This document shows positions 8,085 through 61,288 of a stretch of 64,000 bases of DNA, piece by piece. How positions within the stretch are numbered: position 1 is the first letter of the stretch; each line of letters starts with the position of its first letter. The notes beneath the pieces were generated by a model. That model ran no database searches. It was given only the letters and a program-made list of their open reading frames with translations, and was not told the DNA's origin. Origin of the DNA: Cellvibrionaceae bacterium (GTDB taxonomy: Bacteria; Pseudomonadota; Gammaproteobacteria; Pseudomonadales; Cellvibrionaceae); assembly GCA_034112445.1 (NCBI GenBank), contig JAWUVI010000021.1, positions 12,815 through 76,814 of the forward strand, written 5' to 3'. The translations under genes and the position numbers were made by a program.

Positions 8085-8261
8085 GAATTAAAGGCCTTAT
8101 ACTCTATTGAGTTTATCTGGGATAACACAGTCCATTATGTATTTTGGTGGATTCCAATATCACCAACTTACAGCTTAGACAATAAAGCCATAAACACCCA
8201 AAAATTAATGTAATTCAGCGAGTTATAATCGTTTCTGATACCATATTCTCACCATTAAAAA

Positions 8262-14566: not shown

Positions 14567-14687
14567 GCCATTTATTTGATTATATTCAAAGAAAACATCA
14601 ATTAGAGACTCCTAATTTCATTTTATTTGAGTAGAATGTTCATCTCTAATAAAAACTCATACTTAAAAATTAAGCGCGGAATCAGTA

Positions 14688-15761: not shown

Positions 15762-15809
15762 AGAGCATCCAACACTGGCACACTGCATAAGTCCGTCATC
15801 CTGTATAAG

Positions 15810-15843
15810 CACCGTCATCCTGAACTTGTTTCAGGATGACGGT
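15810..15843. terminator. 15-bp perfect stem-loop between convergent genes (possible bidirectional terminator)
   Basis: CACCGTCATCCTGAA-cttg-TTCAGGATGACGGTG. It lies between the aroF stop (15761) and the stop of the minus-strand cluster (15942). There is no clear U-tract on either strand. Confidence 0.45.
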
Positions 15844-15941
15844 GGAACCAGATAACGGTGAAGCCAGACGGTAGAGCCAGAATAACGGTGAAGCCAAAGG
15901 TTGTGAAGTTGAAGGCATGGAGTAAGAATAAGAATGTGTTT

Positions 15942-16754
15942 TTACAAACTGGCTAGACACTTAATTCCCGCTGGTAATTCTCCTTTAGGGTTCGCCAACT
16001 CTGCTCTGATTCGATAAGTCCCACTGGCTGCATCAATAATAGGGTCAACCATGGTGATTTTCGCTTGGTATTGACCATTAATCGGTGCCTCTGGATAAAT
16101 AGTCAAACTCCCCTTGGCAGAAATACTACCAAAGCTTTCATAAGGCATAACCAATTCAACTTTTAACGGATCTAAACGCGCAAGCGTTAATACTGGGTCA
16201 GTGCCGACAAACTCTCCAGACTCGTTAAACAAATCAATGACCACCCCATTGATTGGGCTTTTAATTTTTCTTAAATCCAAAACCTCACGGGAGTGGCGCA
16301 ACTCTTTTTGTGACACCTGATATTCAGTAGCAAATTCATCCCGCTCATGTATTGATATGAGGTCTTCATTATAAAGACTGTCATTTCGTTCAACTTGGCG
16401 CTGGGCAAATTCAGACCGAACTTTTGCTAGCTCAACCGACGCTGCTTCGACACCAGACTTGAGTGAAAATATAGGCTGCCCCTTACGAACTTTATCACCC
16501 AATTTAACTGAAACTGAATCTATTACGCCAGGTACTGGACTACTAATATCCACACGCATACTTGGCTCAATCATGCAGCCCATGGCCGGCAAATACTGTA
16601 TCACCACTGGTTGAGTAAGCTTGTTTTCTAGCGTGCTGGTTTCTATAGCACTTATCTCTAATGTATTTACCCCTGAAGTACTTGGCTCTTGAGCCAAGCT
16701 GGAAACACACACACACGATAAAATAAAGCTCGCTAGGCATTGCTTCAATGCCAT
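15942..16754 (-). CDS. Exported HlyD/membrane-fusion-protein-like periplasmic adaptor (short form)
   Basis: 270 aa. Signal peptide MALKQCLASFILSCVCVSSLAQE. Lipoyl/barrel-sandwich halves (GVIDSVSVKLGDKVRKGQPIFSL and IKSPINGVVIDL) separated by a short helical hairpin. AGGAGG Shine-Dalgarno 6 nt upstream. The start overlaps the SecA-like stop by 10 nt. Confidence 0.75.
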   Translation of the reverse strand: MALKQCLASFILSCVCVSSLAQEPSTSGVNTLEISAIETSTLENKLTQPVVIQYLPAMGCMIEPSMRVDISSPVPGVIDSVSVKLGDKVRKGQPIFSLKSGVEAASVELAKVRSEFAQRQVERNDSLYNEDLISIHERDEFATEYQVSQKELRHSREVLDLRKIKSPINGVVIDLFNESGEFVGTDPVLTLARLDPLKVELVMPYESFGSISAKGSLTIYPEAPINGQYQAKITMVDPIIDAASGTYRIRAELANPKGELPAGIKCLASL

Positions 16755-18832
16755 TTACTACCTCCTAAAAATGCTAAGGATGAACGTTCTTTCTCATCCA
16801 TCTTTAATGTCATTTTACGTTCACCAGCATGTTTCAACTCAAGCCGCCACTGACAATAACGTTGCAACCAACGAGCTAAGAAATTAAACGCAAATGGGAT
16901 TTTCCCGCTGACTAGAATGACTAATTTAGATAAATTTTTACCGTACATTCGAACCACAGAATCATCTAATGCCAAGATATATTCTACGCTGCCAGGATCA
17001 CCTTGTCTGGCTGATCTTCCAGCCAATTGCCTATCAACTCTCGCTGAATCATTCAGTTCGCAAATAATAACGTGTAAACCACCTGCCTCTCTGCATTCTT
17101 TATCGAGTTTTATATCGGTACCACGTCCTGCCATTGATGTGGCAATAGTAATGGCACCACTCACGCCAGCATCAGAAATAATTTCAGCCTCGGCACCATC
17201 TTGTTTTGCTGTTAGCAAAAAGTACGGTTGCTGCATTTCATCCATAATAGCCGCTAGACTTTCAGATTGATGTACCGAAGCTGTACCTATGAGAACTGAA
17301 CGTCCATCTAAAGCTTGTTTAACCGCTGCATCAACAATCACTTTTTCTTTACTGGGCTGATCGCGCAGCACTGTGTAAGCCGTGATTTTACGCAGTGATT
17401 TTTTTAACAGTGGCACTTTTTTTACAGGTAAATTATAAACCTTTAATAACTCAGACCGAACCTCTTTGGCCGTACCTGTCATACCAGCCACATTAAAATA
17501 TTTCTTAAAGAAATTTTGATAACTGATTTTGGCCAGTGTTTTACGTGGTTTGGTTAAAGGACAGCCCTCTTTAATTTCTATCAGTTGATGTAAGCCCCCT
17601 TCCCACGATCTATCTCCAGCCGGACGACCGGTGTACTCATCGACAATAACAATTTTGTCATCATCGACTATGTAGTGTTTATCTAAATCAAACAAATACA
17701 AAGCGGTTAAAGCTTGAGTCAACATTTGTTGGCGTCGAATGAGGTTGTACCACGGAGTATTTAAATCCAAACATATTTCTTCTGCAGCCTTACCACCTTC
17801 TTTAAGCATAACAATTTTACGGTTCGGCCAATCTATTTCATAGTGTTTACCATCGACCAAGTTACGAGCAACATCCAACACGGTTCGTAAAAAATCTTCT
17901 TCATCGTCCATATCGACTTCGCCACCAGAAATCACTAATGGGGTGCGTGACTCATCTATAAATACACTGTCAGCCTCATCGACTAAGGCAAAATTCAAAC
18001 CTTGATGCATAAGATTATTTAAAAAACCGGTATCGTCTTCGAGTACTTGGCGATGAATATCCAATGAATCTTGGCGTTCATCTAAAACTAACGAGTCTTT
18101 TAAGTAATCAAATACCAATTCATTATTTGAACAATAAACAATGTCACCGGCATAGATCGCCTTGCGGTCTTCAATGGTGTGCTCATTAATGATCGCCTGA
18201 GCACGCAAACCTAAATAACTGTAGAGCGGCAGCATTTCTTCACAGTCGCGCTCAGCCAAATAATCGTTGGTGGTAATTACGTGAACTTTAACACCGGCCA
18301 TTGCAGCGGTAGCGGTAGCCAATGTTCCGGCTAATGTTTTCCCTTCTCCGGTAGCCATTTCAGCCACCATGCCTTGCAATAAAATGAGCGACGCCCGAAT
18401 TTGGGTGTGATGATGACGCATACCTACAGAGCGCCCTGCAGCCTCACGGATAAGCGCAAATGATTCAATCACAGTCTTATTGTTTAGCCCACAACTAAGT
18501 AATGTAAGTTTGACCCGAGCAACTTCAGCTAAAAAATCTTCTTCCGATAATGCCGTATAAATATCTGATTGTTTAATGATTTTTTTAACGAGATGGCCGT
18601 CATTGATGAACAACTTTAAAATTGGAAACAGAACGGTTCGATAGGTTCCTCGTAAAAAACTATCAAGCCATGTGAGTTTAGGAATCGTTTTCTCAGGTCG
18701 ATTCTTGATTGAACTCATTTGCCGCATCGGGTATCGGAACAGAAGGTTTCTCAATGAAATAGACGGTAAAGATGTTGACCTTACAGATGTTGACCTTAAA
18801 GACTTCAATTTAAAAAACAGTTTATTAAACAT
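16745..18832 (-). CDS. Truncated SecA-like motor ATPase (NBD1, preprotein cross-linking domain and NBD2 only)
   Basis: 695 aa. Colinear with E. coli SecA from about residue 60 to the start of the scaffold helix. Matching segments: GMRHHHTQI, EMATGEGKTLAG (Walker A), VHVITTNDYLAERD, YCSNNELVFDYLKD, ALVDEADSVFIDESRTPLVISG (Walker B), YIVDDDKIVIVDEYTGR, WEGGLHQLIEIKEG, ISYQNFFKKY, GMTGTA, ATSMAGRGTDIKL, GGLHVI and RVDRQLAGRSARQGDPGS. It ends about 75 aa after NBD2. It therefore lacks most of the helical scaffold, the wing domain, the two-helix finger and the C-terminal SecB/zinc-binding tail. It carries a basic N-terminal extension of about 55 aa. Confidence 0.85.
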   Translation of the reverse strand: MFNKLFFKLKSLRSTSVRSTSLPSISLRNLLFRYPMRQMSSIKNRPEKTIPKLTWLDSFLRGTYRTVLFPILKLFINDGHLVKKIIKQSDIYTALSEEDFLAEVARVKLTLLSCGLNNKTVIESFALIREAAGRSVGMRHHHTQIRASLILLQGMVAEMATGEGKTLAGTLATATAAMAGVKVHVITTNDYLAERDCEEMLPLYSYLGLRAQAIINEHTIEDRKAIYAGDIVYCSNNELVFDYLKDSLVLDERQDSLDIHRQVLEDDTGFLNNLMHQGLNFALVDEADSVFIDESRTPLVISGGEVDMDDEEDFLRTVLDVARNLVDGKHYEIDWPNRKIVMLKEGGKAAEEICLDLNTPWYNLIRRQQMLTQALTALYLFDLDKHYIVDDDKIVIVDEYTGRPAGDRSWEGGLHQLIEIKEGCPLTKPRKTLAKISYQNFFKKYFNVAGMTGTAKEVRSELLKVYNLPVKKVPLLKKSLRKITAYTVLRDQPSKEKVIVDAAVKQALDGRSVLIGTASVHQSESLAAIMDEMQQPYFLLTAKQDGAEAEIISDAGVSGAITIATSMAGRGTDIKLDKECREAGGLHVIICELNDSARVDRQLAGRSARQGDPGSVEYILALDDSVVRMYGKNLSKLVILVSGKIPFAFNFLARWLQRYCQWRLELKHAGERKMTLKMDEKERSSLAFLGGSKWH

Positions 18833-20969
18833 TAAACTGCTCCAAAAAGCTGCGTCTGACGCTGCGATAAACGCGCCAAAAAATAGGTTCTTCGATCAAG
18901 TTAAATTTAACAAAAAATCTCTCTTCAACACGCTCAAGTAAAGATTCATCCGTCACCACACGAACCAAAACAAAATTCTCAACCGCCGTAGGGGCATCTG
19001 ATTTACTCGGATCAATGACTAAATCACCGCCAGCTTCAGTCGATAAAATAACACTGGGCAACTCCTTGGTTACCTGTGGAGTAACATTGAGCATCTGCGC
19101 ATTAAATTCAACTTGGCGATCAGAAGCAGGCCGAACATCTATAGAGTTTGTATCTGCTAGAACTTGCTCTGCCAAGCCCTCAGGAATAAGAACTTTAAGG
19201 GTTAGCTTATCGTCAGCTGACAACACGTAACCAACCAATTCACCACGTTTAAGAAAGCCACCTTGAAAGGAATCGATTTTAGACAAAACTACCTTACCAG
19301 GAGATAAACTGGTTACTTTGGTTTGTTCAAGGTGGGTTTGAATTTCGTAGTGTTCGCGCTCTAATCGTTTTTTCTCTTCTTTGATCAATAAAAATTTAGC
19401 TCGATCGGCATAAGAGGCTTGAAGTCTTGCCTCTGTAGCTTGTAGTTGAGCGTTCAACACCGCTAACTTGTCTTCAAGCTCATAGTTCTTCAAGTTGATA
19501 AGAGTTTCACCTATAGCAACCTGCTCACCACTTTTTTTCACTATGCTATCAATAAAACCAGACTCACCCGCATACAAACGTTGTTTTTCATTCACCCACG
19601 AAACTCCTGAAACAGTAACACTATAGGGCAAGGGAATTTCAAACAACAATATCCAGAAGCTCGCCGTCACGATAACCATAACCATGATTGGATTTCGCTT
19701 GGATGTTTTAAATTCATTATCGGTAAAAGGTTTGCTCACCGTTTTTGAAAACGGCATTAACCAGCCAGAGGTAAAAGCCCATATAGCCAAAAGAATACCG
19801 AGGATAAAGTATTTCTGACCAACAAATATAATAATGGATATCGAAATAAATAAACGATAAGCAAAGGCGAACATATTGTAGAAGAAGAGCCAATAAGCTT
19901 CGCGTATATCCACCGCTGGACTCATGACAGATTTAATATTGAACATATAGCGTTTACATAAATACCCCCAATAAGACGTCGCCTTTTTGGCCAAATTGGG
20001 GATTTCTAAATAATCTGACAAAGCAAAATAGGCATCAAACTTTAGCAGCGGATTACCATTAAATAGCAGCGTTGAGATACCCGCCATAAAAACAATATTG
20101 AACAGTAAGGCTTTTAAAAATCCAGCCTCTGAAATATTCCAAATAATCAATGCTACCGCGGCAATGAACAGCTCAACGATCACGCCTGAAGCCGACACCA
20201 TAATCCGCTGATATTTACTGGCAAAACTGGCCGACTCTGACGCGTTCACATAAGGCATGGGGAAAAATACCAAAAACATAACGCCCACTTCCGAGACTTG
20301 ACCGCCATAGTAGCGTACACAAAACGCATGCCCCAGTTCGTGCAAAATCTTGATCAATGGATATAAAAACCACAACAGTAGTAAATTTTCTGCGGCTAAA
20401 ACACGATCCGATAAATTGGACGTCAACGCCTCATAATTTTGTGCCGCAATAACCAACGCGTAAGTAATGAATAATCCATAAACTAACCATAAGCGCCAAT
20501 TAATAAAACGCTCTAATACGGGACACAATTTATCCAGTAATTTAGTAGGATCAAATAGAGGGAGTTGAAGAGACATGGGAGACTGCACTTTTTGCAGCCG
20601 CTTTTTATCGCTTTTACTTTGTTTACGATGGAATAAATCCTTAGCATTAGCCGGAATATTCAGATGAATCATATCGGCTTGATGCAACGATGTTATTAAA
20701 GTCACCACCTCATCTTGAGTCGGCATATCTTTTTCAAGCTGATTGCCAGACTCTTCCCACATTTCATTAAGGGTGTGCTGACCATCCATCATGCCAATCA
20801 ATAAATAGGCGTGAGATGAAAAGAGTTGAACCGTACCAGAAATGGTATCGCGTAAAACGTACCAACGTTCATTGCGGTGAATCTGTGATGAGATATCGAT
20901 TTGGACTTTGAGTTTAGGTTTCAGGTTTTCAACCCGGTACCAATTTTTACTGAAGACAGATACTGACAT
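18825..20969 (-). CDS. Polytopic M50 (site-2-protease-like) zinc metalloprotease fused to a C-terminal HlyD-like adaptor domain
   Basis: HExxH in a TM helix (ILHELGHAFCVRYYGG) and a downstream N-x-x-P-x-x-x-x-D motif (FNGNPLLKFDAYF). There are several TM helices. The C-terminal part has barrel-sandwich and coiled-coil character (SGFIDSIVKKSGEQVAIGETLINL ... SLSPGKVVL). The N-terminal ~90 aa (NWYRVENLKP...WYVLRD...LIGMMDGQHTLNEMW) resembles a PqqD-like peptide-binding domain. The ORF track extends to a TTG at 21005. The ATG at 20969 (MSVSVFSKNWYRV) lies 4 nt after the upstream stop and looks the more likely start. Confidence 0.75.
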   Translation of the reverse strand: MSVSVFSKNWYRVENLKPKLKVQIDISSQIHRNERWYVLRDTISGTVQLFSSHAYLLIGMMDGQHTLNEMWEESGNQLEKDMPTQDEVVTLITSLHQADMIHLNIPANAKDLFHRKQSKSDKKRLQKVQSPMSLQLPLFDPTKLLDKLCPVLERFINWRLWLVYGLFITYALVIAAQNYEALTSNLSDRVLAAENLLLLWFLYPLIKILHELGHAFCVRYYGGQVSEVGVMFLVFFPMPYVNASESASFASKYQRIMVSASGVIVELFIAAVALIIWNISEAGFLKALLFNIVFMAGISTLLFNGNPLLKFDAYFALSDYLEIPNLAKKATSYWGYLCKRYMFNIKSVMSPAVDIREAYWLFFYNMFAFAYRLFISISIIIFVGQKYFILGILLAIWAFTSGWLMPFSKTVSKPFTDNEFKTSKRNPIMVMVIVTASFWILLFEIPLPYSVTVSGVSWVNEKQRLYAGESGFIDSIVKKSGEQVAIGETLINLKNYELEDKLAVLNAQLQATEARLQASYADRAKFLLIKEEKKRLEREHYEIQTHLEQTKVTSLSPGKVVLSKIDSFQGGFLKRGELVGYVLSADDKLTLKVLIPEGLAEQVLADTNSIDVRPASDRQVEFNAQMLNVTPQVTKELPSVILSTEAGGDLVIDPSKSDAPTAVENFVLVRVVTDESLLERVEERFFVKFNLIEEPIFWRVYRSVRRSFLEQFNV

Positions 20970-20973
20970 AAAC

Positions 20974-22911: not shown

Positions 22912-23199
22912 TTATTCGGCGTTATCACCAATAGCACCAAAGCGGTTCTCATACTCATCGACTACTTTACCCAACAACAAACTCAAACGTTTGGCCGCAT
23001 ACGGGTTTAAAATAATACGATCAGAAAGGTTAATCGCCACTTCTTTCTGGCCCGTATGCCATGTCTGATTGGTTCCAAACAATAATGTGACTTCCTCACG
23101 AGTACTCGACACATTACACACATTCGCATACGAACTGCGCATTTGTGAATCATTCCACGTTAATTTTGGTGTGTTTTGCGCCTGCTTTTTATCGGTCAT
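22912..23199 (-). CDS. Small cytoplasmic protein, DUF3467-like
   Basis: 95 aa with an AAGGA Shine-Dalgarno upstream. Pattern SSYANVCNVSSTREEVTLLFG...RIILNPYAAKRLSLLLGKVVDEYENRFGAI matches my recollection of the DUF3467 family. No signal peptide. It lies immediately downstream of the giant gene (42-nt gap). Confidence 0.6.
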   Translation of the reverse strand: MTDKKQAQNTPKLTWNDSQMRSSYANVCNVSSTREEVTLLFGTNQTWHTGQKEVAINLSDRIILNPYAAKRLSLLLGKVVDEYENRFGAIGDNAE

Positions 23200-23241: not shown

Positions 23242-26200
23242 TTATTTACTCGTCTTACGACGAACTAGCTCACCATCACTCCAAGTAAACAGATTCTGCT
23301 CTTTGGCTTTTTGTGTCATTAATTCTTCTGAATTCTCAACACTGTAGCTCTGTTTGTTTTGGGTTTTCTGGCGAACTTGCCAGCCACGTCGCATGGCAGC
23401 CAAAGATATTACACCCAAGATAGCTTCAGCTCCACGACTAACACCTGAATTGTCATCGGAGTCAACGTTCGATACCTTCATCGTCGCATCATCCTCAGCT
23501 TTCTCTTGTGGAATTGGGTTGCCATCTTCATCAAGAAGCACACAGCCTTCCGGTATAATTGGATCGCCGTTTTCATCAAGTTCAACTTCAATGGGCTCGC
23601 CGTTTTCATCGACAACTTGAACGTCACATGAGACCTCAGACTCACCAGTATCTTCAGTTTCTTCACCAGCCGCCGTAGCCGGTAAGCTCTGTAAAAAGTC
23701 TTGCAGAGAATCATTAGCCGATGCGCCTTCACTTCCCGTACCCACTCGTACCAGCAATAAATTACTGCTGTGGATATTGGTGGTGAATTCGCCCGCTACT
23801 TGATAAACGTCTGACCAATCCAAGTCCAACTCAATGGCGAAGGCGCTGTAGTATTGCCCCTGAGTCGCACCGATTAATTCAAGCGATGCTGGATCCGTAG
23901 AAATCAGTACACCACCAACGGTTTGAGTAAAGCGACCATAACCACCCAAGGCGATATCTTCTATGAAGTTGGCCTCAAACAAATCACTCTCGTGTCCGCC
24001 AAGTAACCAATCAAATCCTTCACCACCATCAATGGTATCGGCGCCACCTTTTAACGGATCGATCGTATCAGCAAAGAACTGGCCGACTTGATCGTAACCG
24101 ATGATGCCGAAATCACCGAAGATGATGTCATTACCAGCGTCACCATAAAGTTCATCTTCGGCGCCGCCACCCATAATCCAGTCGTTGTCATCGCCACCAT
24201 GAACCACATCCTGACCGCCTTGGTCAGGCAAGGTGGTTACCATTTCAACAAAGACATCATTCTGGAAGGTCATTTCACCGCTGTCAGCCAAGACCATATC
24301 GTCCCCGGCACCTGCATCAACGGTATCGTCATCAAGGCCAGCAATAATACGATCCTTACCGGCACCTGAGTCGATTGAATCATCACCCGTAGTACTTGGG
24401 TCTGAATCAGTTGAGGCTAAGCGAGACGCTATGCCATTGGTGTATTCAATGATGCCGTTATCACCAAAGATGTCATCGTCACCACCGGTGGTAGTAATCG
24501 TGTCATCGCCCTGACCTGCCAGGATGGTGTTGTCTCCGCCAGTGCTGCGAATTATGTCCTTACCGCCATTGATGAGATCAGTGTTCTCGATGGTTTCAAT
24601 AACACCGGCTGAATCGTAATTAATCTCGCCGTTGTCACCAATGACGCGATCATTGCCTGTGCCCGTATCCACGGTATCACTACCTTGGCCTGCAATAACG
24701 GTGTTATCACCTTCGCCTGCATCAATAACGTCATCACCACCTAGGTCGGTTACCGTACTGGTGGCGCGAGTTAAAATTGCGTCAACATAGATAAGTTCAC
24801 CGCTGTCAGCTAACACAACATCGTTACCAGAGCTCGTGGTGATTTGGTCGTTATCTAGACCGGCAATAATACGATTATTACCAATACCCGCATTAATAAT
24901 GTCGTCGCCTGTAGTGGACTCATCAACATCAATGGAAACCAAGCGAGAAGCAACACCAGTGGTGTATTCAATTAAGCCGTTATCACCAAATATGTCATCA
25001 TCGCCATCGAGTGTAGTAACCGTGTCGTTACCTTGACCAGCAATAATAACGTTACCGCCATGGCCAGCGGTAATAACGTCATTGGCGCCATTAACAATAG
25101 ATGTACTGCTCAGACGATCAATAACTCCCGCTGTTGTCCAAATCATTTCGCCGCTATCGCCAATGATATGATTAGAACCCGCACCGGCTGTTACTGTATC
25201 TTCACCATTACCGGCGATGATCCAACCAGTAACGTCCGTTAATGTAATTTGATCATTACCGCCTTCAGTCTCAACTGTAGAGACCATGCGGGTAACAACA
25301 TCATTAACCACTTCTATTTGACCATTATCAGCTAAGACATGAGCCGTTCCAGCATCAACGGTAACAACATCATCACCGAGTCCAGCTAATACGCGATTAT
25401 TACCATCCGTTACCGTAATCGTATCTATTGATGCTGTAGCAGGCGTTATATCCGAAGTTTGTAGTAGAACAGCCAAGCCATTTGCATCGAAGTCAATAGA
25501 GCCATTGTCACCTATAAGATTATTGGTGCCGCTAGCATTAATCGTGTCCTCACCAAAGCCAGCAATAACACTGTTAACGCCAGTGCCGCCGACGGTAATA
25601 TCATCCGCGCCACCATTACCGGAGACATCGGATTCAATTCGCGAAATAACGCTACCGTTGTAAGTAATTGTACCTAGATCACCAATAACGACATTGCTGC
25701 CAAGGCTATCGATAACCGTGTCATTGCCTAATCCAGCAATGATTCGATCATCGCCTTCATTGCCCATTATGTAGTCATTACCCATAACACTGGTGCTATG
25801 CGATTGAATCGTAATAGCCATGGTGCTGGTGATTTCATCGGCAAACAATGGCGTCGCAGTACCATCGCTATTATCAGTAACTACGCCCTCATCGCCAAGG
25901 ATGATGTCAACACCTTCACCGCCGTATAAGTAGTCATCACTCGCACTACCAATAATCAAGTCATTACCAATTTGGCCATGGATACGTGTCGCCAAAGTTG
26001 AGCCACTGGCATTAACTGTATCGTCTCCATCTTGGCCAAAAATATCTAAGCGACGCGCTCCGGTATCGCCGCCAGTATTAAGAACGTCATGAGAGATGAC
26101 GTCAGTGACTGTGCTGGTAATACGATCGCTGCCTTCATTGCCATAAAGCGTGGTAACGCTAACATCCGAGCCTGTCACATCTTCAAAATAAACACCGGTG

Positions 26201-29200
26201 ACAGCAATAACATCAGCGCCTTGGCTAGCCCAAATAACCAGGTCGTTATTGTAATTTCCAGCGGTTGCGGTGTAAGTAATATCAGCTACGGCCATGCCAA
26301 CCATACGACCATTACTCAAAGTGGCGGTATCGGCTACTAGGCTGTCGAAATCACTGACGTACAGTGAGTTAGCATCAGCGCCGGCATCGATATTTAATAA
26401 GCCATTTATGCCATCTAAAGTACCGTGTGCCACGCCTATATTAGATAAATCACCATTAGCATCACTGGTGATATCTATTCGATCTTCACCGGCGTGCGTA
26501 TTGATATTAGTAACTGTGTTGCTGTTAGTTGATTGAACATTAATAACGTCAGCCGCAGAACCCGTATCAATATTGAGTGTGTCGACACCGTAATAGTTAA
26601 TACCGTTAGTGCGAGTTTCAAGCGAAGCATCACCAGCAGCAACGGTTAATGAAGCTGTTTCATGCTCACCTTGGAAGCTAATCAACCAACCCTCAGCGAT
26701 TTTAATCAAACCGAAGTTATTGGTATGCGGTAAAGCATCATTACTGTTATTTGGGTTCAGAATAAGAGTCAACGCATCTCTAAGAGCTTTTTCATCATCA
26801 ACTTCATTTCCAAGCCAATATTCAGCCCAATCGATATTGGTTGTGCCTAGCTCTTTGGGGCCCAGACCTTCAGGGTCAATTCCAATCACGGTTAATTGAT
26901 AATTACTGGTGCCATCAACTGTTAGAATCTGAGTGTTTCCTGCAACGCTAATAGGTGAACCATCACGTAGCGTGGTGATACGTGCATCGACAGAAATATC
27001 ATCCGCTGCGAACAGACCTGTTGTCGTAGGATCAATATCGACAGTCATTTGTGGAATATTAACACCCGACATTTCACCACCAAAGGTGATGCTGTATAGG
27101 TTGCCACTGGCTGATACTTCTCTTTCAACCGTAATGCCTTGCATATTGGTCATTTCTAGAAGAGTACCAAAGTGATTATTGAGTGCCATTGCCATGTCGT
27201 CAGAACTGATACCGTAGGCCATTGTGGCTATACCGTAATCAACCCCAAAGTTCATCCCGAAAGTTCCACCAGCGGCACGAATGGCTAACTGCTGTTTCTC
27301 CGCTAACGAAGGCATATCCAAACCAATCAAACTGGTGCGTCGAACTTGCAACTCATTGCTGACCTCATCACCAGAGTCATCAACATTAAGGATGTCTCCA
27401 ATATTATCGCCATCCGTTAGATCCGCTTCACCCATATCAATGGTCAGTAAGGCGGCAATTTCATCGGCCAACTGCTCATTACTGCGAACGGTAATAACAT
27501 CATCGCCCGCTTCAGTATTGATACTCGTCACACCTGAAACGGTTTTGACTAGAACATCGTCATCACCTTTACCGGTGGTGATGTTGGTTGCTCCCTCGTG
27601 AGTCGATTCAATGATGACCTGATCGATACCATGACCAAGGTCAAGACTCAGTATTTCAAGGCCTTCATAATGAATACCACCAGTAATATCAGTACCCGCA
27701 ATGGTCACATCATCGCCCATACCTAAGCCGTAAACGCGGCTTTCCGTTATGGTGACGCTTTCATCGGCCGGGCTATTACCGTTGTATATATTCAATACAT
27801 CCACTTGGACAGCTTCATCCACTCGGGTATTGAGGTTTACCGGACGAATAAAGTATGAGTCGGTAGGCAGTATGGTCATGTCCTCCGGTAGATCTAAGGT
27901 CAAGGTCGTTAAGTCTTCAGAAATACCCAATATATCGACAACGGTGAGTAGTTCGCCATTGCGCATGATGGATATTTCATAAGGATTATTCTCAATACGA
28001 GGATCAAAACCATCGGCAAATTCGTTGGATTCAGGATCCCAATGTTCAGCATTTGAATCACTAAATTCATTGCCTGAGACAAAGGTAATTAAACCGTCTT
28101 CTGGGAATAAATTAGTTTCCAGAGGAAGCATGACAGGATTATTGAGTTTGTAATCCGCTCCAATTTGTTCTCCGCCGTTTATAAATACTGGGCCACGTAT
28201 TTGATTAACTCGCTCTGAGCCAGGCGCAAATACTTTGACATCACCTCCATCAATGACCAAATCGTTAAAGGCTTGGACATCTATGGTGCGAATGTCACTC
28301 CAATCTCCGGCAGCTCCAGACGTAAATACTTCACTAGAAACAATTCCAGAATTTAAAATCACCTGAACCTCAGGGTCGAGTTCAGCGGCGTCGGTGAAGA
28401 CTAAATCACCGTTATAGGTTCTGGTTTCAACACCGGCAAAATCAACGGTCACGTCGGCATCTGGAGCACCCGAAAGAACCATGAAGTAATTGTCATCTTG
28501 CCAGTTTGGTGAGGTGTTATAGTCCAGATATTTATCCGCTACATCATAAGTGATTTCATAACGATCACCTTTGTTAATAACGATATCGGTACGATCTAGA
28601 GTAAACGTATCCGACTCTACGTCATAGAATGCAATGGTCGAAGATTCACCCGCATCTACACCCGACAACATAGTCAACGTCATACCTTTCAAATCAACAA
28701 AGTCTTCATCAAGACCATGCCCATCAAGAGAGATATTCAGTTGATAACTGTCAGTCATCCCCTGCTCCCATGTACTCGAATAAAGTACGTTATAGTCAGA
28801 GGTCGTGGTGGAGCTATAGGCCGCTAAATGGATGGCCTCAGGATCAAAGATGTCACCATTCAATTCATAATCGTATACATAGCTGGTTGTTATCACGTTA
28901 GCCGAACGGGAATAGTTAACTTCATAACCTACTTCAACACTGTAAAATCCAGCCGTATCAAACAATAACAACAGCATTGGATCATTGATGTCGGTACTAC
29001 CAACATCCAACTCGTCACTTAAATCCATTATTTCACTATTAGGAATGAGCACTCGGCTCTCGCCAGTTCCCTGATAGATTTTCAAATAAGGAACATAACT
29101 CGCTGTATAGGTAGTAGTGGTGTTTATCTGTTGAATGGTAAGTTCATCAAGATAATCAACAACTTGAGATCCCCAAAAGGTGTCTACCGTTTTAGTGTTA

Positions 29201-32200
29201 AATACAGGTGTCGATATAACTTCGTCATTCGTATAACTACTGGTGTCAGTAAACGATTTACCAAAATCAAGATCAAACAAGCCTTGCGCCGAGGCAATAC
29301 GTTGTTGACTGATAACGGCATCATCTATCTGATTGCCATCCCCAATGACAATAGTTGCACCATTAGCGGTTGCATTATTGGTTAAACCCGCGGCCTCTAA
29401 TTGCAACATCAACCAATCAGCAACAATATTATTAATTGGTTCTGCCACCGTAACAGCGGCTATGTCTGCTTGGGTCACTTCATGAGTAAACGCAACACCA
29501 TTCACCGTCACCATCCAAACATCCCCAATAGCCGGAGAGCTGTCAGCGTTCAGATCAAGAGTGAACTTATCCCAGCGATCGTGTGTATTATCCCATGTTG
29601 GAGCTGGTAAGATTTCTGCATTTTTAATGATTAAGTTGGCGTCTATTTGCCCTTCATCTGCAGCCACAATAACCAATTCATCTCCAGAAGCGGTTACATC
29701 ATAACCGCTACCAAAGTGAGTACTGATCGCCAAGGCCATAGCGTCTAGGTCAGTTGTTGCGGTGCCAATATAAGGTTGCACACCAGACCCGGCGATAGTA
29801 ACAGTCCATTGATCACCAGCTGAAATTAATCCGCTGACATCGATGCTTTGCTCATAAACCGTAACAGTACTTGTTGTAGGCGAGGCTGACGTAATGACAT
29901 CGGCATGCAACGTCAGATTGGGAGCCGCGCCATTTGTGCGTTTAATCAACAAAGTATTGCTATTGGAATCATAAGTAGCCGTATAAGAACCACCAAAATC
30001 ACCCGCTAAATTGTCACCGATGGTACCCAATGCCAGGGATCCATCTGATTCACTAGAGACAACCGTTGAACCTGACAAAACACTCCAATTAGCTGCTGTG
30101 ACGGTATTATCCAACACTAATTTTTGTTGATACTGGCTATTGGAGGAAGCAAACGTGCCATTACCTGAAGCGGACGAGGTTGCTGTCGAAATGCCGCTGC
30201 CACTTGCGGCGGCGATAGCCGTTAATCCAACGCTAAACGATGTTGAATCTATCGAAGTAACAACATAATCAGAACTGAGAGTATTACTTAGGTAAGAACG
30301 TAAATCAGCCGTAACATCCGCCAACGAAGGCCGATCTGCTACATCCGTGAAACTGGCCGTGTAGGTTTTAGTCACCCCATCAATATTGATGGTCCAAGAC
30401 TGGCCACTGCTAACTTGTCCGGCATCGCCTACGGTAAAGGTACGCTGAATTAATTCTGATGAAGCTCCTTGTATCTGCTCATCCTCAGTAACCGTAAGAG
30501 AAACGCTTTTAGAACCAGCATCGACAATTGAAAGCTCATTACCATTAGAAAATCCAGAGTACTCAATTCGGTAATCAGAACCTAGACCTGGTGCTGTGTC
30601 GGTTTTGACTTTAGCGATTAAGCCATTGGCTATTTCGGTGAACGTTGGGTTGCTATCGGTTGGGTAAGTAAAGGTATCACTGCCAATGGTTAGCGCCCAT
30701 ACCTGACCGGTACCATATGCAGATACAGAAGATAAAACAAAATCATTCTCTTGCAGTTCAGTCGACGACTGAGATGAAACTACAGTCGTCTCATGATCTA
30801 CGTCTAGTCGGAATCCAACTTCAGTATTGCTAATCTGTACACTCTTATTATCAGCACTACGAGTCACATTAAAGAAGGTGTTTACAGAGCCATAAAACTG
30901 AGTATTAAGACCAGTGCTAGCATGATTCAACTGGTTGAATAAATCTGTCGTTAGAGAAATATCTGTACTGCTAGGACCTGCAGTAACGGTGTACTCTTCA
31001 CCACTCACATTGACAGTCCAAACATCTCCATCAGTGACAGAAGCAGGAAAATCTATCGTAGAGCTAAGACGCCAGCCACCAGCTGCACCAGTATCACCAA
31101 CATCAGCAGGACTATTGTTGGGAGCTCCAGCTGGACCGGACAACATGTCGGTTGTTACTTCTATAACATAATTATCTTTGTAGTAAGAACCACCGCCTTC
31201 AATGGTGAGGTGATGCATTGAGTCATCAATAGAGCCATCAAGGGTACCAATATTATCATTGGGTTGATCGTACCAGCCGGTGTTCTTACCTGTGATGCTA
31301 TCCGTACTGACCTGTTGACCTGTGGTTAATTTAGATTCTGCTTCATTCTCCAACAGCGGTGCAGGTATAAATTTAAATTCGGCAACCTCTTGGTTTTCAA
31401 GACCGAGGTGTAACTTATAATCTACGCCTTCAGGAACACCGGTTCCGTAAGTCGCTGATTTGTTGGTTCTACCATCGACTTCAAGAACGTAGATGCCAGC
31501 CGTATTAATTGTTGCTGATAAGCGAGCATCATTGATGCTTGTGCTACCAGAGTCGGTTGTCGAACTACCAAAACCAGTAATACTCACTGGTACGTATTCA
31601 CCATCAATTAATTGCAAAAGGCGTAAACTACTCTGCCACCAAATACCATCTCCTGACTCATACCCCGAATCAATATCAGCGCTAAAACTTACAGGACCTT
31701 CTTTGACAACAAACTCGTAATAGTCACGGCTATCATCGCCGGTGCCATTAACGGTTATATGAGGTCTGTCTTCAGACAGTTCGATGTCATCGCTAACAGC
31801 CTCACTCCAACGTGCAAGACTGAGGTCTTGAGCCGTAGCCATGGAATCATTGCCCACTAACTCTTCTACTTCAGCAAGACCAACACTGCCTGTAAATAAA
31901 TTGCCAGCGGCATCAGTAATCGCTTCACCTTGAGCCAGTACACCTGTTGTAGCACGCTCTGCCACTTGGGTAGTGGAGTCACTTTGTAAGCGATAAGAGG
32001 TGATAATGTCATCGACAGTTGAGTCAATACCATCCATATCGGTAATGACTCTCTCAAGTAACAACAGAGTTGGTTCGTCACCATCGGCGATGGTGACGTC
32101 GACTACGCCCATATTAAAGCCGTCGTAGTTAGTGTCTTCACTGGTCACTGTATGAGTAATTCGCCCGTAGTGTGTTCCTTCAACCACATCATCCGCATTC

Positions 32201-60543: not shown

Positions 60544-61053
60544 TTAAACTGCACTCAAACGAATGCCATACACCTGATAACTGTCACTGCGAATGGCCAG
60601 AGTGATTTTTAACTCACCCTCATCACCAAATTCACTTTGTGGAGAAAACTCAATTTCGTAATGGAGCACAAACACTCGAGCGTTACCTTTGGTGGCCGCC
60701 AAGGTCGAATAATTGTATGAACCCGATTCAATCGAGTGGAATGCTTTGCGTAACTTTTGGAACTCGGAGGTTATGTCTTCTCGAGTTAATTTGGCCTTAG
60801 TCGCCGAACCGAATAAATCGTATAATTTTTGGTCGTCGTTTTTGTTAAACGCATAGGTAAATTGCGACAACAAATGCCTGCGAATATCGGGAGTGATTAT
60901 GTCGGGAAGTTGATTATCTGAAGTCGATTGCGAGGCGTTTTGCGACGATATTTGGAGAGAGTTTTTAGCACTTATGTTTTGCTGGCCGAACCATACCGTG
61001 GCTGACAGATTCGTCAACAGAAGCACCACGACTAAAGCCCTAAAAAAGGTCAC
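60544..61053 (-). CDS. Hypothetical exported or membrane-anchored protein (first gene of the cluster)
   Basis: 169-aa ORF with a GTG start preceded by GGGAAG. N-terminal hydrophobic helix ALVVVLLLTNLSATVWF, a Ser/Gln-rich linker and then a ~110-aa globular part. It is 36 nt from the tolC-like gene. No family recognised. Confidence 0.55.
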   Translation of the reverse strand: MTFFRALVVVLLLTNLSATVWFGQQNISAKNSLQISSQNASQSTSDNQLPDIITPDIRRHLLSQFTYAFNKNDDQKLYDLFGSATKAKLTREDITSEFQKLRKAFHSIESGSYNYSTLAATKGNARVFVLHYEIEFSPQSEFGDEGELKITLAIRSDSYQVYGIRLSAV

Positions 61054-61288
61054 AAATAAACTTCCCGCTGATCAAAAAAACTCGTTTAAAAGCTCAACCT
61101 ACCGACAATAATTGAGGCTTCCATTCAGCAAATAGCTTCAACAAAATTAAAAACAAACGTAGCAAAAATAAAATACACAATAAAAACAATAAGTTAGAGC
61201 GCAATCTTAATGTAAAAAACATACCCACAAATCGGTAGGAATGATGTATCTTGCGCCACTAAATGATCAAAGGCAAGGCGCAAAATAC

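Follow-up and report, generated by a model that had tools for sequence, protein, structure and literature searches.

Secondary SecA_DEAD domain proteins and a conserved locus that encodes them were described by Kamneva, Poudel & Ward (PLoS One 2015, PMC4452313), who proposed a type-I-like system in which the SecA-like protein takes the place of the ABC ATPase. Their analysis covered Proteobacteria, with Gammaproteobacteria in the supplementary tables, and placed the clade next to actinobacterial SecA2. The M. extorquens operon, for which they gave the only expression data for the family, was barely expressed. As in the present locus, those proteins carry SecA_DEAD without a wing/scaffold domain or with a fragment only, and are encoded beside GAF+HlyD, Peptidase_M50+HlyD, and HlyD/Biotin_lipoyl proteins and sometimes OEP/TolC. 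The order of the present four-gene module is the same as that of the M. extorquens AM1 operon. However, no substrate was named in that study, and giant genes, LEPR-XLL, DUF4347, and DUF3467 were not mentioned. Furthermore, M50 was regarded as a possible pore, whereas we propose that it actively cleaves a leader and is combined with a PqqD-like domain for recognition. The family was already known and first described computationally in 2015, and the earlier note on this DNA overstated the novelty of a truncated SecA in a TolC/HlyD cluster.

West-Roberts et al. (2023 preprint) reported SecA_DEAD domains embedded in giant proteins of Omnitrophota and Actinobacteria and proposed an export role. These resemble the present case in having SecA DEAD and preprotein-binding domains without scaffold/wing and in their association with giant proteins. 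However, the SecA-like domain is inside the giant in those phyla, whereas here a HlyD/M50/TolC operon encodes it as a protein of its own (695 aa). In Chlorobium chlorochromatii, LEPRxLL giants were found to be without any known transport signal (Chlorochromatium study), and a horizontally acquired ‘secA’, Cag_1676, is inside their co-expression cluster.

Type I systems for giant RTX adhesins (LapA/LapBCE, SiiE/SiiCDF, and MpIBP) share with this locus HlyD-type adaptors, TolC, an acidic, Cys-poor giant RTX protein, and one-step export across both membranes, which is a proposal for the present locus. In contrast to these systems, the present locus lacks an ABC transporter, encodes three distinct adaptors where they have one, and has a conserved putative N-terminal signal that would replace or add to a C-terminal signal. 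PCATs and RiPP systems with a PqqD-like RRE are similar in that leader recognition and cleavage (predicted here) take place within the export machine, and in the fusion of a PqqD-like domain to a protease. PCATs use a C39 cysteine protease, an ABC motor, and a peptide cargo, whereas the present locus encodes an intramembrane M50 metalloprotease and a SecA-like motor, and its proposed cargo has more than 10,000 residues, as against a peptide in PCAT/RiPP systems.

The window analysed in the present study is a 64,000-nt stretch of DNA from a Cellvibrionaceae bacterium; its features are listed in Table 1. Based on sequence and predicted structure, the SecA-like motor probably powers an ABC-less, type-I-like exporter for the adjacent 11,951-aa RTX protein, which would be guided by an N-terminal leader.

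Table 1. Features of the SecA-like locus and their positions in the window
Feature	Position	Strand	Basis or remark
Small periplasmic HlyD/RND-type adaptor, 270 aa, signal peptide	15942..16754	minus	NCBIfam RND_mfp, Pfam HlyD_D23
SecA-like motor ATPase, 695 aa	16745..18832	minus	Pfam and NCBIfam scans, AF2, Foldseek
Retained long scaffold helix, residues 646-688 of SecA-like protein	16769..16897	minus	AF2, alignment
Preprotein cross-linking domain (PPXD), residues 312-419 of SecA-like protein	17576..17899	minus	Pfam SecA_PP_bind
15-bp tandem duplication AGGTCAACATCTGTA / AGGTCAACATCTTTA, coding STSVRSTSL	18767..18796	minus	Direct sequence reading
RRE-M50-HlyD fusion, 714 aa from ATG	18825..20969	minus	Pfam Peptidase_M50, NCBIfam, hydropathy
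HExxH zinc-binding motif of M50, H222/E223/H226 (726-aa numbering)	20328..20342	minus	Ortholog comparison
PqqD-like leader-recognition (RRE) core, residues ~37-101 (714-aa numbering) of M50-HlyD	20667..20861	minus	PqqD tests
GAF-HlyD protein, 621 aa	20974..22839	minus	Pfam HlyD_D23, HlyD_3, GAF; hydropathy
DUF3467 protein, 95 aa, same operon	22912..23199	minus	Pfam DUF3467, E 1.4e-22
Giant protein, 11,951 aa, proposed cargo	23242..59097	minus	ORF list; Pfam HemolysinCabind, DUF4347
DUF4347 domain, residues 150-339 of giant	58081..58650	minus	Pfam, E 7.8e-49
Divergent LEPR-XLL motif AEQMEARNLLSADLAP, giant residues 43-63, proposed export leader	58909..58971	minus	NCBIfam NF012209
TolC-family outer-membrane channel, 442 aa	59179..60507	minus	NCBIfam type_I_sec_TolC, Pfam OEP
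Signal-anchored 169-aa protein	60544..61053	minus	37 nt upstream of TolC; hydrophobic N-terminal segment

The SecA-like ORF was confirmed on the minus strand, and its translation contains the motifs MATGEGKT, VDEADSVFIDESRTPLVISG, GMTGTA, MAGRGTDIKL, RQLAGRSARQGDPGS, YIVDDDKIVIVDEYTGR, WEGGLHQLIEIKEG, and STSVRSTSL. Its architecture is NBD1-PPXD-NBD2 followed by a single long scaffold helix, and the protein ends 7 residues past this helix. Pfam assigned SecA_DEAD to residues 81-462 (E 3e-89) and P-loop_SecA to residues 484-578, while the SecA_PP_bind match spanned profile positions 3-110 of 110 (E 1.2e-23); the same scan gave no match to SecA_SW or SEC-C. The protein aligned with B. subtilis SecA 37-603 and with T. 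maritima SecA up to 646. The AF2 model (pLDDT 85.9) retrieved SecA structures from the PDB with Foldseek, with a TM of 0.74-0.75 to SecY-engaged SecA. The motor has retained its ATPase core together with the polypeptide clamp (PPXD) and a single scaffold helix, and has lost all parts for canonical SecY/SecB coupling. Pfam, AF2, and the alignment bear out the reduction to NBD1-PPXD-NBD2 claimed in the earlier note. The wing domain, two-helix finger, return helices, and C-terminal tail are really absent rather than divergent; however, the scaffold helix, most of which the note had counted among the losses, is kept. The missing domains support the view, also taken in the note, that canonical contacts of this protein with SecY or SecB would not be possible.

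Canonical SecA and the engineered E. coli SecA-N68 (PDB 5k9t) share the NBD1-PPXD-NBD2 fold and all ATPase motifs with the SecA-like protein, and N68 is the laboratory counterpart of this natural truncation. Compared with canonical SecA, the SecA-like protein lacks the wing domain, the two-helix finger/IRA1, and the zinc/SecB-binding tail, and the segment P.R.P.S..LRPE.....WLD, which is specific to the short-SecA family, stands in place of the lipid-binding N-terminus. In 1999, Karamanou et al. reportedly found that the N68 ATPase is de-repressed by IRA1 loss; therefore, regulation of the SecA-like protein must come from partner proteins.

The protein had been called an orphan, which was incorrect: by its sequence, it is a member of a large monophyletic clade of fixed length (~660-700 aa), apart from canonical SecA. 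Short forms (n=37) and canonical SecAs (n=27) were split in 100/100 NJ bootstraps. None of the best 120 homologs has SecA_SW or SEC-C, and, with the exception of two fragments, their lengths are 608-707 aa. At 50% clustering, 142 of the 150 best representatives have 640-700 aa, as do 138 of the 147 new ones among them. Identity to the closest named relatives is 56-59%. A set of 57 homologs shows no variation at Walker A K165, Walker B D285/E286, or R606/R609, and the same truncation recurs in hundreds of orthologs. The NCBIfam SecA and SecA2 models match only to approximately position 555 of 789, with scores far under their cut-offs (361-453 bits for SecA2 against 725-1100), which agrees with the earlier view that the protein differs from the Gram-positive type of SecA2.

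The Ser/Arg-rich residues 1-26 are predicted to be disordered (AF2, pLDDT below 50). The length of the N-terminus differs between homologs, and the STSVRSTSL repeat was not found in homologs and is confined to the copy in this window. Conservation does not back the weight that had been placed on the basic N-terminal extension. The start also differs between annotations: JGI gives 660 aa from Met36, whereas NCBI and Logan give 695 aa. The overlaps described at both ends of the gene were confirmed by the junction sequences. At its 5' end, the ATG of the gene overlaps the M50-HlyD stop codon (ATGTTTAA), M50-HlyD being the upstream neighbour, and a Shine-Dalgarno GGAG lies 7 nt 5' of this ATG. At its 3' end, the gene shares 10 nt with the beginning of the adaptor gene downstream (ATGGCATTGA), and AGGAGG lies 7 nt 5' of the adaptor start. 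The 8-nt M50/SecA overlap is kept in Aestuariicella, Vibrio, and Amphritea. These junctions support translational coupling of the SecA-like gene to the neighbouring HlyD-type genes, in a locus that also contains a TolC gene and the giant gene.

The M50-HlyD ORF opens at TTG 21005 and consists of a cytoplasmic PqqD-like domain, ~7 transmembrane segments that carry the active site of a site-2 protease, and a HlyD domain in the periplasm. HExxH and its partner motif NxNPLLxxD (N316-D324, 726-aa numbering) show no variation among 9 orthologs, which come from gammaproteobacteria, betaproteobacteria, and Planctomycetes. The nearest NCBIfam model describes a protease of RiPP leaders, and the daptide intramembrane metalloprotease model matched with E 1e-40. 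The PqqD segments of 3 orthologs scored over the Pfam gathering score (26.3, 23.7, and 27.2 against 23.4), and those of 2 further orthologs were near the threshold; orthologs bear the NCBI name ‘PqqD family’. A profile of 9 orthologs had PqqD on top in the PDB, with weak hits (5sxy, E 0.019; 3g2b, E 0.075), while the N-terminal domain in this window gave no PqqD detection as a single sequence.

GAF-HlyD has a cytoplasmic GAF region, a single transmembrane segment (358-376), and a periplasmic HlyD domain. Except at one locus (L045), its gene neighbours the short SecA gene in all loci with sufficient sequence. A reference-genome scan found M50-HlyD and GAF-HlyD upstream of short forms wherever the sequence allows, with the same exception, and at 0 of 70 canonical secA loci. 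The small adaptor, which likewise accompanies the short-SecA clade, has a hydrophobic N-terminal segment (hydropathy) and scored 115 bits with RND_mfp (cut-off 94.9). The DUF3467 gene, which was missing from the earlier list of components, has an identical position in Aestuariicella, Amphritea, Pontibrevibacter, Methylosinus, and Mesorhizobium and also occurs in one Phycisphaerales locus. Its homologs show 65-91% identity, and this recurrence marks DUF3467 as an accessory component of the module. The TolC product scored 281.6 bits with type_I_sec_TolC (cut-off 225). The 169-aa protein had no family match in the Pfam and NCBIfam scans, and it is uncertain whether its gene belongs to the operon; upstream of this gene, at 61224-61239, is a terminator-like site of nfuA. 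Pfam and NCBIfam detected no ABC transporter in the operon. GGDEF/EAL genes recur close to the module. At one further locus (L086), a DUF4347 protein is encoded with OEP, HlyD, and M50-HlyD genes, and a SecA gene was not called.

The 11,951-aa giant is acidic and almost Cys-free, has RTX repeats with 39 GGxGxD motifs distributed along its entire length, and has no hydrophobic Sec signal peptide. Its LEPR-XLL motif, which follows a basic N-terminus, scored 13.1 bits with NF012209, under the cut-off of 17. The position of this motif is the same in DUF4347 homologs and in module-adjacent giants elsewhere, and in 8/8 readable N-termini of the latter, LEPR-XLL or a near variant comes after a basic stretch. 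A giant gene adjoins the module in 12 of 15 loci with sufficient flank (alpha-, beta-, and gammaproteobacteria). It is directly upstream in 10 loci, with eight known lengths (11,951, 8,289, 8,205, 12,586, ~12,918, ~10,603, ~8,847, and ~10,518 aa) and two giants cut by the locus end (at least 1,922 and at least 2,519 aa); the other two loci have DUF4347 N-termini or fragments downstream. Adjacency is not universal, as no giant gene was present within 10 kb of the module in three Planctomycete loci. The C-termini of five giants share a pattern in which a final RTX-like block is followed by a hydrophobic segment, (R)RGW, and a tail of basic residues; this pattern could be the real export signal.

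We propose that the SecA-like protein is the energy source of a trans-envelope exporter without an ABC transporter, in which the other parts would be the three HlyD-type adaptors (GAF-HlyD, RRE-M50-HlyD, and the small soluble adaptor), the TolC channel, and the small DUF3467 protein. The PqqD-like domain of M50-HlyD may capture the basic N-terminus and LEPR-XLL of the cargo in the cytoplasm. The motor would then dock on this inner-membrane platform and feed the unfolded chain N-terminus first, possibly co-translationally, into a conduit of M50 transmembrane domains and adaptors and then TolC. The leader would be removed by the intramembrane M50 protease, and calcium-driven folding of RTX repeats outside the cell may prevent back-sliding.

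Several observations were counted against this model: a polypeptide-pushing motor without a two-helix finger; Planctomycete loci without a giant and L086 without a called SecA; the PqqD domain undetected singly in this window, the weak PDB hits, and the LEPR motif under its cut-off; and the very low expression of the M. extorquens operon. Known type I substrates exit C-terminus first, and this was also counted against the model together with the conserved C-terminal pattern of the giants.

The same machine and cargo may instead operate C-terminus first, with the SecA-like protein working at the entrance as an unfoldase or holdase-motor and the leader as a tether, although we regard this as rather unlikely. 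LEPR-XLL bound to the PqqD-like domain would tether the finished adhesin to the cell until M50 cleavage released it, perhaps under GAF domain or c-di-GMP control by analogy with the action of LapG/LapD on LapA. The RTX repeats and C-terminal pattern, the HlyD and TolC parts typical of type I systems, the fusion of one adaptor to a GAF sensor domain, and the recurrent GGDEF/EAL genes are consistent with this direction, which the authors of the Chlorochromatium study likewise assume. However, the GGxGxD repeats are not concentrated C-terminally, a C-terminal signal would have no ABC transporter to read it, and the positionally fixed, conserved element is N-terminal. Moreover, to our knowledge, every characterised SecA motor moves chains N to C, and this established direction argues against C-first transport.

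It is improbable that the module matures and exports a small, RiPP-like leader peptide and that the giant gene is merely a frequent neighbour. RiPP pathways typically have PqqD-like domains and such M50 proteases, the best NCBIfam matches are daptide and epipeptide maturation proteases, and the Planctomycete loci have no giant gene nearby. However, the giant gene adjoins the module across three proteobacterial classes, modifying enzymes such as radical SAM or cyclodehydratase are absent from the operon, and a small precursor ORF was not seen. DUF3467 is too conserved and too widespread for a precursor, and a SecA clamp, three adaptors, and TolC would be excessive for a small peptide.

We strongly doubt that the protein is an accessory SecA2-type ATPase delivering selected substrates to the housekeeping SecYEG. 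Like Gram-positive and mycobacterial SecA2, it would be a second SecA-type ATPase for a subset of substrates; mycobacterial SecA2 also lacks the wing domain. However, SecA2 has a two-helix finger and acts together with SecYEG or SecY2, whereas the SecA-like protein lacks the finger, the wing domain, and the C-terminal tail. The overall SecA fold, with PPXD placed as in SecY-engaged SecA structures, and the position of the clade beside actinobacterial SecA2 (PMC4452313) favour a SecA2-type role. The low SecA2 model scores, the lack of a nearby SecY2 or Asp gene, a neighbouring cargo without a hydrophobic signal peptide, and strict linkage to HlyD/M50 rather than Sec genes argue against it. The reading as a decaying secA fragment, for which the only point is that the protein is shorter than canonical SecA, is already refuted by its constant length across hundreds of clusters, invariant catalytic residues, old and monophyletic clade, conserved translational coupling, and confident AF2 model.

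The link of the short-SecA module to a putative giant cargo appears not to have been described before. To the published module, the present results add a giant neighbour with LEPR-XLL, a PqqD-like domain with an invariant protease site, and DUF3467.

The SecA-like protein of the window is encoded in a module with genes for a GAF-HlyD protein, an M50-HlyD protein with a putative PqqD-like N-terminus, and a small HlyD adaptor, together with TolC and DUF3467 genes. Kamneva, Poudel & Ward (PLoS One 2015, PMC4452313) described 'secondary SecA_DEAD domain proteins', which lack the wing/scaffold domain or retain only a fragment of it, in Planctomycetes, Verrucomicrobia, Proteobacteria (Gammaproteobacteria in the supplementary tables), Nitrospirae, and Chlorobi. 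Their neighbors always included GAF+HlyD, Peptidase_M50+HlyD, and HlyD/Biotin_lipoyl proteins and sometimes an OEP gene, and the SecA-like protein was proposed to be the ATPase of an ABC-less type-I-like system. The neighbors in the window carry the same domain combinations (Pfam, NCBIfam), and the gene order on the minus strand equals that of M. extorquens AM1 (GAF, M50, SecA_DEAD, HlyD; META1p2402-2399). We concluded that the locus adds a new gammaproteobacterial member to a family that was defined computationally in 2015. The interpretation in the earlier note, a truncated SecA serving a TolC/HlyD cluster, was sound in substance; however, it was not novel because the same module had already been reported. 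In giant Omnitrophota proteins, West-Roberts et al. (2023 preprint) later found fused SecA_DEAD domains that lack scaffold/wing. No experimental follow-up of secondary SecA_DEAD proteins was found in the literature searched. NCBI mislabels homologs of the SecA-like protein as 'prepilin peptidase' or 'DEAD/DEAH box helicase' (homologs P0013, P0027, P0033, P0040, P0044, and others; loci L088-L091), and the M50-HlyD partner is named variously as 'site-2 protease family protein', 'PqqD family protein', or 'hypothetical protein'.

The linkage between short SecA genes and the module was examined in a reference-genome scan with generic SecA patterns (MAGRGTDI, NDYLxxRD), which mostly returned canonical secA as a negative control. 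Eleven loci had a short SecA ORF, defined as approximately 740 aa or less from stop to stop. M50-HlyD and GAF-HlyD genes were located directly upstream of it wherever the sequence reached, except at one locus (L045), in which no module partner was detectable in 9.5 kb upstream. In contrast, module partners were present beside 0 of 70 canonical secA genes (797 aa or more). The context of three fragments of giant N-termini was also inspected. The metagenomic locus L084 carries the module, and L085 has no module part within 10 kb of the fragment. In L086, genes for OEP, HlyD, and M50-HlyD come after that of a DUF4347 protein whose N-terminus is of the ESPR type, and no SecA_DEAD gene was called; the system may be a variant lacking the SecA-like motor, or the absence may be due to assembly or gene calling.

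The features discussed are listed in the table. The AddAB-like pair downstream of the locus (a PD-(D/E)XK nuclease of 918 aa and a UvrD-type helicase of 1,182 aa), together with trmA, rmuC, DAHP synthase, and nfuA, indicates a chromosomal housekeeping setting with no obvious mobile island. Promoter and terminator scans of the window performed no better than on shuffled sequence, except for a terminator-like site after nfuA. Just downstream of this site, and 37 nt upstream of TolC, a gene that may begin the operon encodes a 169-aa protein that has a membrane anchor at its N-terminus and matched no family. A HAMP-GGDEF-EAL protein is encoded approximately 8 kb from the module, and GGDEF/EAL or PAS-GGDEF genes adjoin the module in Amphritea (L083) and the metagenomic locus L084. 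By analogy with LapA, these recurrent genes may reflect c-di-GMP control of the giant.

Positions of the features discussed, in the window and at related loci
Feature	Sequence	Positions	Strand
HAMP-GGDEF-EAL protein	Window	6000-8084	-
AddAB-like pair	Window	8262-14566	+
Small HlyD adaptor	Window	15942-16754	-
SecA-like protein (SecA_DEAD)	Window	16745-18832	-
15-bp tandem duplication, 5' end of SecA-like gene	Window	18767-18796	-
First ATG of SecA-like gene	Window	18832	-
M50-HlyD protein	Window	18825-21005	-
GAF-HlyD protein	Window	20974-22839	-
DUF3467 protein	Window	22912-23199	-
Giant RTX protein	Window	23242-59097	-
Shared C-terminus of giant	Window	23242-23640	-
169-aa anchored protein	Window	60544-61053	-
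Terminator-like site for nfuA	Window	61224-61239	
GGDEF/EAL or PAS-GGDEF gene	L083 (Amphritea)	14320-16455	
GGDEF/EAL or PAS-GGDEF gene	L084 (metagenomic)	8103-9296	
DUF4347, OEP, HlyD, and M50-HlyD genes	L086	10001-19573	
SapC-family gene	L088 (Pseudosulfitobacter plasmid)	19100-19921	

The candidate cargo is encoded upstream of the module. The window giant (11,951 aa) contains 16% D+E vs 4% K+R, is nearly Cys-free, carries 39 GGxGxD motifs, and lacks a hydrophobic signal peptide. Giant genes were also located beside the module in Aestuariicella (8,289 aa), Vibrio sp. DW001 (8,205 aa), Amphritea (12,586 aa), and Achromobacter piechaudii (at least 1,922 aa, at which point the end of the locus was reached). 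Plasmid-borne examples were found in Pseudosulfitobacter (approximately 12,918 aa) and Pontibrevibacter (approximately 10,603 aa), both named 'LEPR-XLL domain-containing protein' by NCBI, Methylosinus sp. C49 (approximately 8,847 aa), Mesorhizobium ciceri (approximately 10,518 aa), and Rhodobacteraceae M382 (an ORF of at least 2,519 aa that is missing from the gene table). At two more loci, what lies downstream of the module is a DUF4347 N-terminus or fragments. Overall, a giant gene adjoined the module in 12 of the 15 loci with enough flank. The three exceptions (L007, L013, and L022) were all Planctomycete loci, in which no giant ORF was present within 10 kb of the module, although the PqqD domain was clearly detectable; either the cargo gene is located elsewhere or this phylum has a different cargo. 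The giants of the window and of loci L001, L002, L082, and L083 share a C-terminal pattern (the last approximately 130 residues in the window giant). A last RTX-like block leads to F[LV]xxLP and then to an acidic stretch of low complexity; a short hydrophobic segment that closes with (R)RGW follows, and the tail is basic. This pattern may serve as an anchor, as a plug, or as a second signal.

In the window giant, DUF4347 occupies residues 150-339 (E 8e-49), and residues 43-63 ahead of it read AEQMEARNLLSADLAP. This segment scored 13.1 bits on the NCBIfam model NF012209 (LEPR-XLL), under the cut-off of 17. When the N-terminal 329 aa served as a query, all homologs returned were short N-terminal fragments (at most 574 aa), which were used for the motif and not for the giant counts. 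Most of the homologs start with a short basic stretch followed by LEELEPR[IL]LLSADL, and the two closest read MEQMENRYLLSADA. Therefore, the window giant carries a divergent copy of a real LEPR-XLL motif. The motifs of the Methylosinus and Mesorhizobium giants, read directly, are FDTLEPRVLLNADV and FEALEPRLLLSADF, respectively, and LEPR-XLL or a variant was present in all eight readable N-termini of module-adjacent giants. A LEPR-XLL motif has been published for a giant of approximately 8,000 aa common to Vibrio VB16 and DW001. According to a preprint on Chlorochromatium (2026), Cag_663 (36,806 aa) and Cag_665 (20,647 aa) begin with LEPRxLL, are flanked by SapC and TolC genes with the SapC gene preceding them, and belong to the same co-expression cluster as a horizontally acquired 'secA' (Cag_1676). 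The preprint draws no connection to the 2015 module. Cag_1676 may be a short form, and Chl. chlorochromatii may be the Chlorobi species of the 2015 paper. On the Pseudosulfitobacter plasmid, the module itself contains a SapC-family gene, which separates the SecA-like gene from the M50-HlyD gene; no SapC gene is present in the window.

The M50-HlyD protein has approximately seven hydrophobic segments (residues 170-457) followed by an HlyD domain. H222, E223, and H226 (HExxH) and N316, N318, P319, L320, L321, and D324 (NxNPLLxxD) showed no variation among nine orthologs (gamma- and betaproteobacteria and Planctomycetes). Since this site-2-protease zinc site is invariant, the M50 domain is probably an active protease and not merely a pore. 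The best NCBIfam match was the daptide-biosynthesis intramembrane metalloprotease (E 1e-40). The N-terminal domain is cytoplasmic and looked PqqD-like. The corresponding segments of three Planctomycete orthologs passed the PqqD gathering score of 23.4 over the full profile (26.3, 23.7, and 27.2), and two gammaproteobacterial N-termini were just under it (20.2 and 15.6). PqqD was not detected by Pfam in the M50-HlyD proteins of the window and L001 taken singly; both were alignable throughout with the orthologs. A profile of the nine orthologs had PqqD as its two best PDB matches (5sxy, E 0.019; 3g2b, E 0.075), and NCBI independently calls the Pontibrevibacter and Methylosinus orthologs 'PqqD family'. 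PqqD-like domains are leader-peptide recognition elements in RiPP pathways. By analogy with leader-dependent export (RiPP/PCAT logic), this domain and the M50 zinc site suggest that the LEPR-XLL leader is bound by the PqqD-like domain and cut at the M50 site.

A 95-aa DUF3467 ORF (E 1.4e-22), absent from the list in the earlier note, lies between the giant and GAF-HlyD genes. DUF3467 occurs at the same position in Aestuariicella, Amphritea, Pontibrevibacter, Methylosinus, and Mesorhizobium and is also found in a Phycisphaerales locus; the Vibrio and Pseudosulfitobacter loci have no DUF3467 gene, and Pseudosulfitobacter has the SapC gene instead. The protein is 65-91% identical and far more conserved than the SecA-like protein in comparable relatives. 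A relationship to SecB-like chaperones was not supported (hhalign against E. coli SecB, probability 0.3%). Neither phmmer nor a profile search matched DUF3467 to the PDB, and Foldseek returned nothing significant. Its AlphaFold2 model was poor (pLDDT of only 64), with a beta-beta-beta-beta-alpha topology. A role as a chaperone or adaptor is a guess.

We consider, with moderate confidence, that the SecA-like protein is the motor of an exporter for the neighboring giant; the individual steps are proposed less firmly. The leader of the giant would be captured by the PqqD-like domain. The motor would then thread the chain N-terminus first via an inner-membrane platform of M50-HlyD and GAF-HlyD, followed by the adaptors and TolC. 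The leader would be removed by the M50 protease, and calcium-driven folding outside the cell would block back-sliding. More tentatively, we speculate that the motor, PqqD-M50-HlyD, GAF-HlyD, small adaptor, DUF3467, and TolC may form a distinct class of double-membrane secretion and the general route for LEPR-XLL giants, which are 8,000-37,000 aa in length and occur in Proteobacteria, Chlorobi, and probably Planctomycetes. In such a class, a RiPP-type domain would recognize the leader, an intramembrane protease would cut it, and a SecA-derived ATPase, not an ABC protein, would thread the chain, possibly during translation.

The main rival explanation is export with the C-terminus first, as in type I secretion, in which case the N-terminal leader and M50 site would act as a tether-and-release device. 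Type I substrates have RTX repeats and an uncleaved C-terminal signal, and the window giant has RTX repeats and the conserved C-terminal pattern, which may or may not act as a signal; this pattern and the recurrent GAF and GGDEF/EAL genes speak for the C-first route. The window also encodes type I parts, namely, three HlyD-type proteins and TolC (281.6 bits vs a cut-off of 225). However, the ABC transporter of type I systems has no counterpart here: no ABC domain was detected with Pfam or NCBIfam in the genes from 15942 to 61053 or in the flanks. We consider C-first export to be unlikely. An exporter of RiPP-like peptides is quite improbable.

The motor itself was examined at the levels of sequence and predicted structure. 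The ORF exists, and its 695-aa product contains all of the motifs cited in the earlier note. Pfam detected SecA_DEAD (81-462, E 3e-89), full-length SecA_PP_bind (312-419, E 1.2e-23), and P-loop_SecA (484-578). SecA_SW and SEC-C had no Pfam match, and the sequence ends at residue 695. In canonical SecA, the SEC-C zinc/SecB-binding motif is found with the C-terminal linker and is itself not universal among SecAs; the SecA-like protein has none. The NCBIfam SecA/SecA2 models aligned only up to approximately position 555 of approximately 789, with overall scores of 360-517 bits vs cut-offs of 725-1493. The AlphaFold2 model, with 57 homologs as input, was confident (pLDDT 85.9, pTM 0.85). The PPXD is inserted in NBD1, as seen by Pfam and in the model, and the last NBD2 strand (614-621) is followed by two short helices, a 43-residue helix (646-688), and the remaining seven residues. 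The top Foldseek matches were all SecA structures. The best fit was to SecY-engaged SecA (5eul and 3dl8, TM 0.75; 6itc, TM 0.74), and the engineered E. coli truncation N68 (5k9t) was among the matches. Alignments to solved SecAs reached B. subtilis residue 603 and T. maritima residue 646 and no further. Therefore, the SecA-like protein comprises NBD1-PPXD-NBD2 and a long scaffold helix, without the wing domain, the two-helix finger and return helices, and the C-terminal tail. The scaffold helix had previously been described as mostly gone; however, one long helix (646-688) is kept in the model and in the alignments to solved SecAs. A SecA2 that feeds SecYEG is very unlikely. The protein missed the curated NCBIfam cut-offs for SecA2 (453 vs 1085, 424 vs 930, 384 vs 725, and 361 vs 1100 bits) as well as those for SecA (517 vs 862, 508 vs 814, and 507 vs 800 bits). 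SecA2 is associated with SecY2/Asp genes and a Gram-positive or mycobacterial host, whereas the neighbors here are HlyD, M50, TolC, and proteobacterial housekeeping genes.

The first ATG of the SecA-like gene has GGAG 7 nt upstream and overlaps the M50-HlyD stop (ATGTTTAA); Aestuariicella, Vibrio sp. DW001, and Amphritea share this 8-nt overlap. Its closest homolog, at 68% identity, likewise begins with MF. Start calls differ, with 695 aa in NCBI and Logan and 660 aa from Met36 in JGI. Residues 1-26 are predicted to be disordered, and their length differs between homologs. STSVRSTSL is the product of the 15-bp tandem duplication (14 of 15 bases identical), which was found in no homolog examined. 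The variable N-terminus is followed by a conserved stretch, P.R.P.S..LRPE.....WLD. At the other end, 10 nt are shared between the SecA-like stop and the start of the 270-aa adaptor (ATGGCATTGA), and AGGAGG precedes the adaptor start.

The protein is not the orphan described in the earlier note. Its 120 best homologs have an identical domain set and lengths of 608-707 aa, except for two fragments. An exhaustive search covered 1.84 billion cluster representatives; lengths of 640-700 aa were found for 142 of the best 150 and for 138 of the 147 previously unseen ones. In all 100 bootstraps of a neighbor-joining tree, 37 diverse short forms were separated from 27 canonical SecAs, with the Planctomycete short forms that have the module (L007, L013, and L022) on the short-form side. 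The mean distance in this set was 1.02 among short forms vs 0.60 among canonical SecAs. The Walker A K165, Walker B D285/E286, and arginine-finger R606/R609 residues were invariant in the 57 homologs. Based on the fixed length, invariant catalytic residues, bootstrap split, and wide divergence, we concluded that the short SecA is an old clade of fixed length and not a decay product. The possibility of a decaying secA pseudogene, which the earlier note had raised, was not borne out because homologs share the truncation, and its probability is negligible. No second secA is present within the 64-kb window. Relatives of the SecA-like gene are located on plasmids or the smaller Vibrio replicon, which suggests a chromosomal secA elsewhere in those genomes.

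The present study adds a candidate cargo to this family. The proposed link of the SecA-like module to LEPR-XLL giants was drawn from gene neighborhoods. Neither this link nor those to DUF3467 and to a PqqD-like domain beside an intact protease site were found in the searchable literature.

To our knowledge, nobody has shown the mechanism by which proteins of at least 10,000 residues are exported without a recognizable Sec, Tat, or type I signal. Such giants include the proteins that hold the Chlorochromatium consortium together. The present results correct a systematic database error, the 'prepilin peptidase' and 'DEAD/DEAH box helicase' labels on SecA-like proteins. The links to the LEPR-XLL cargo, the PqqD-like domain and protease site, and DUF3467 make the system directly testable, and culturable carriers include Vibrio sp. 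DW001/VB16, Methylosinus sp. C49, Mesorhizobium ciceri R30, and Methylobacterium extorquens AM1. If the proposal is true, the full parts list of the machine would be a SecA-derived motor without SecY, a leader-reading intramembrane protease, three adaptors, and TolC. The peptide-recognition domain of the protease would have been borrowed from natural-product pathways, and the SecA motor would have been recruited at least once into a non-Sec envelope-spanning system.
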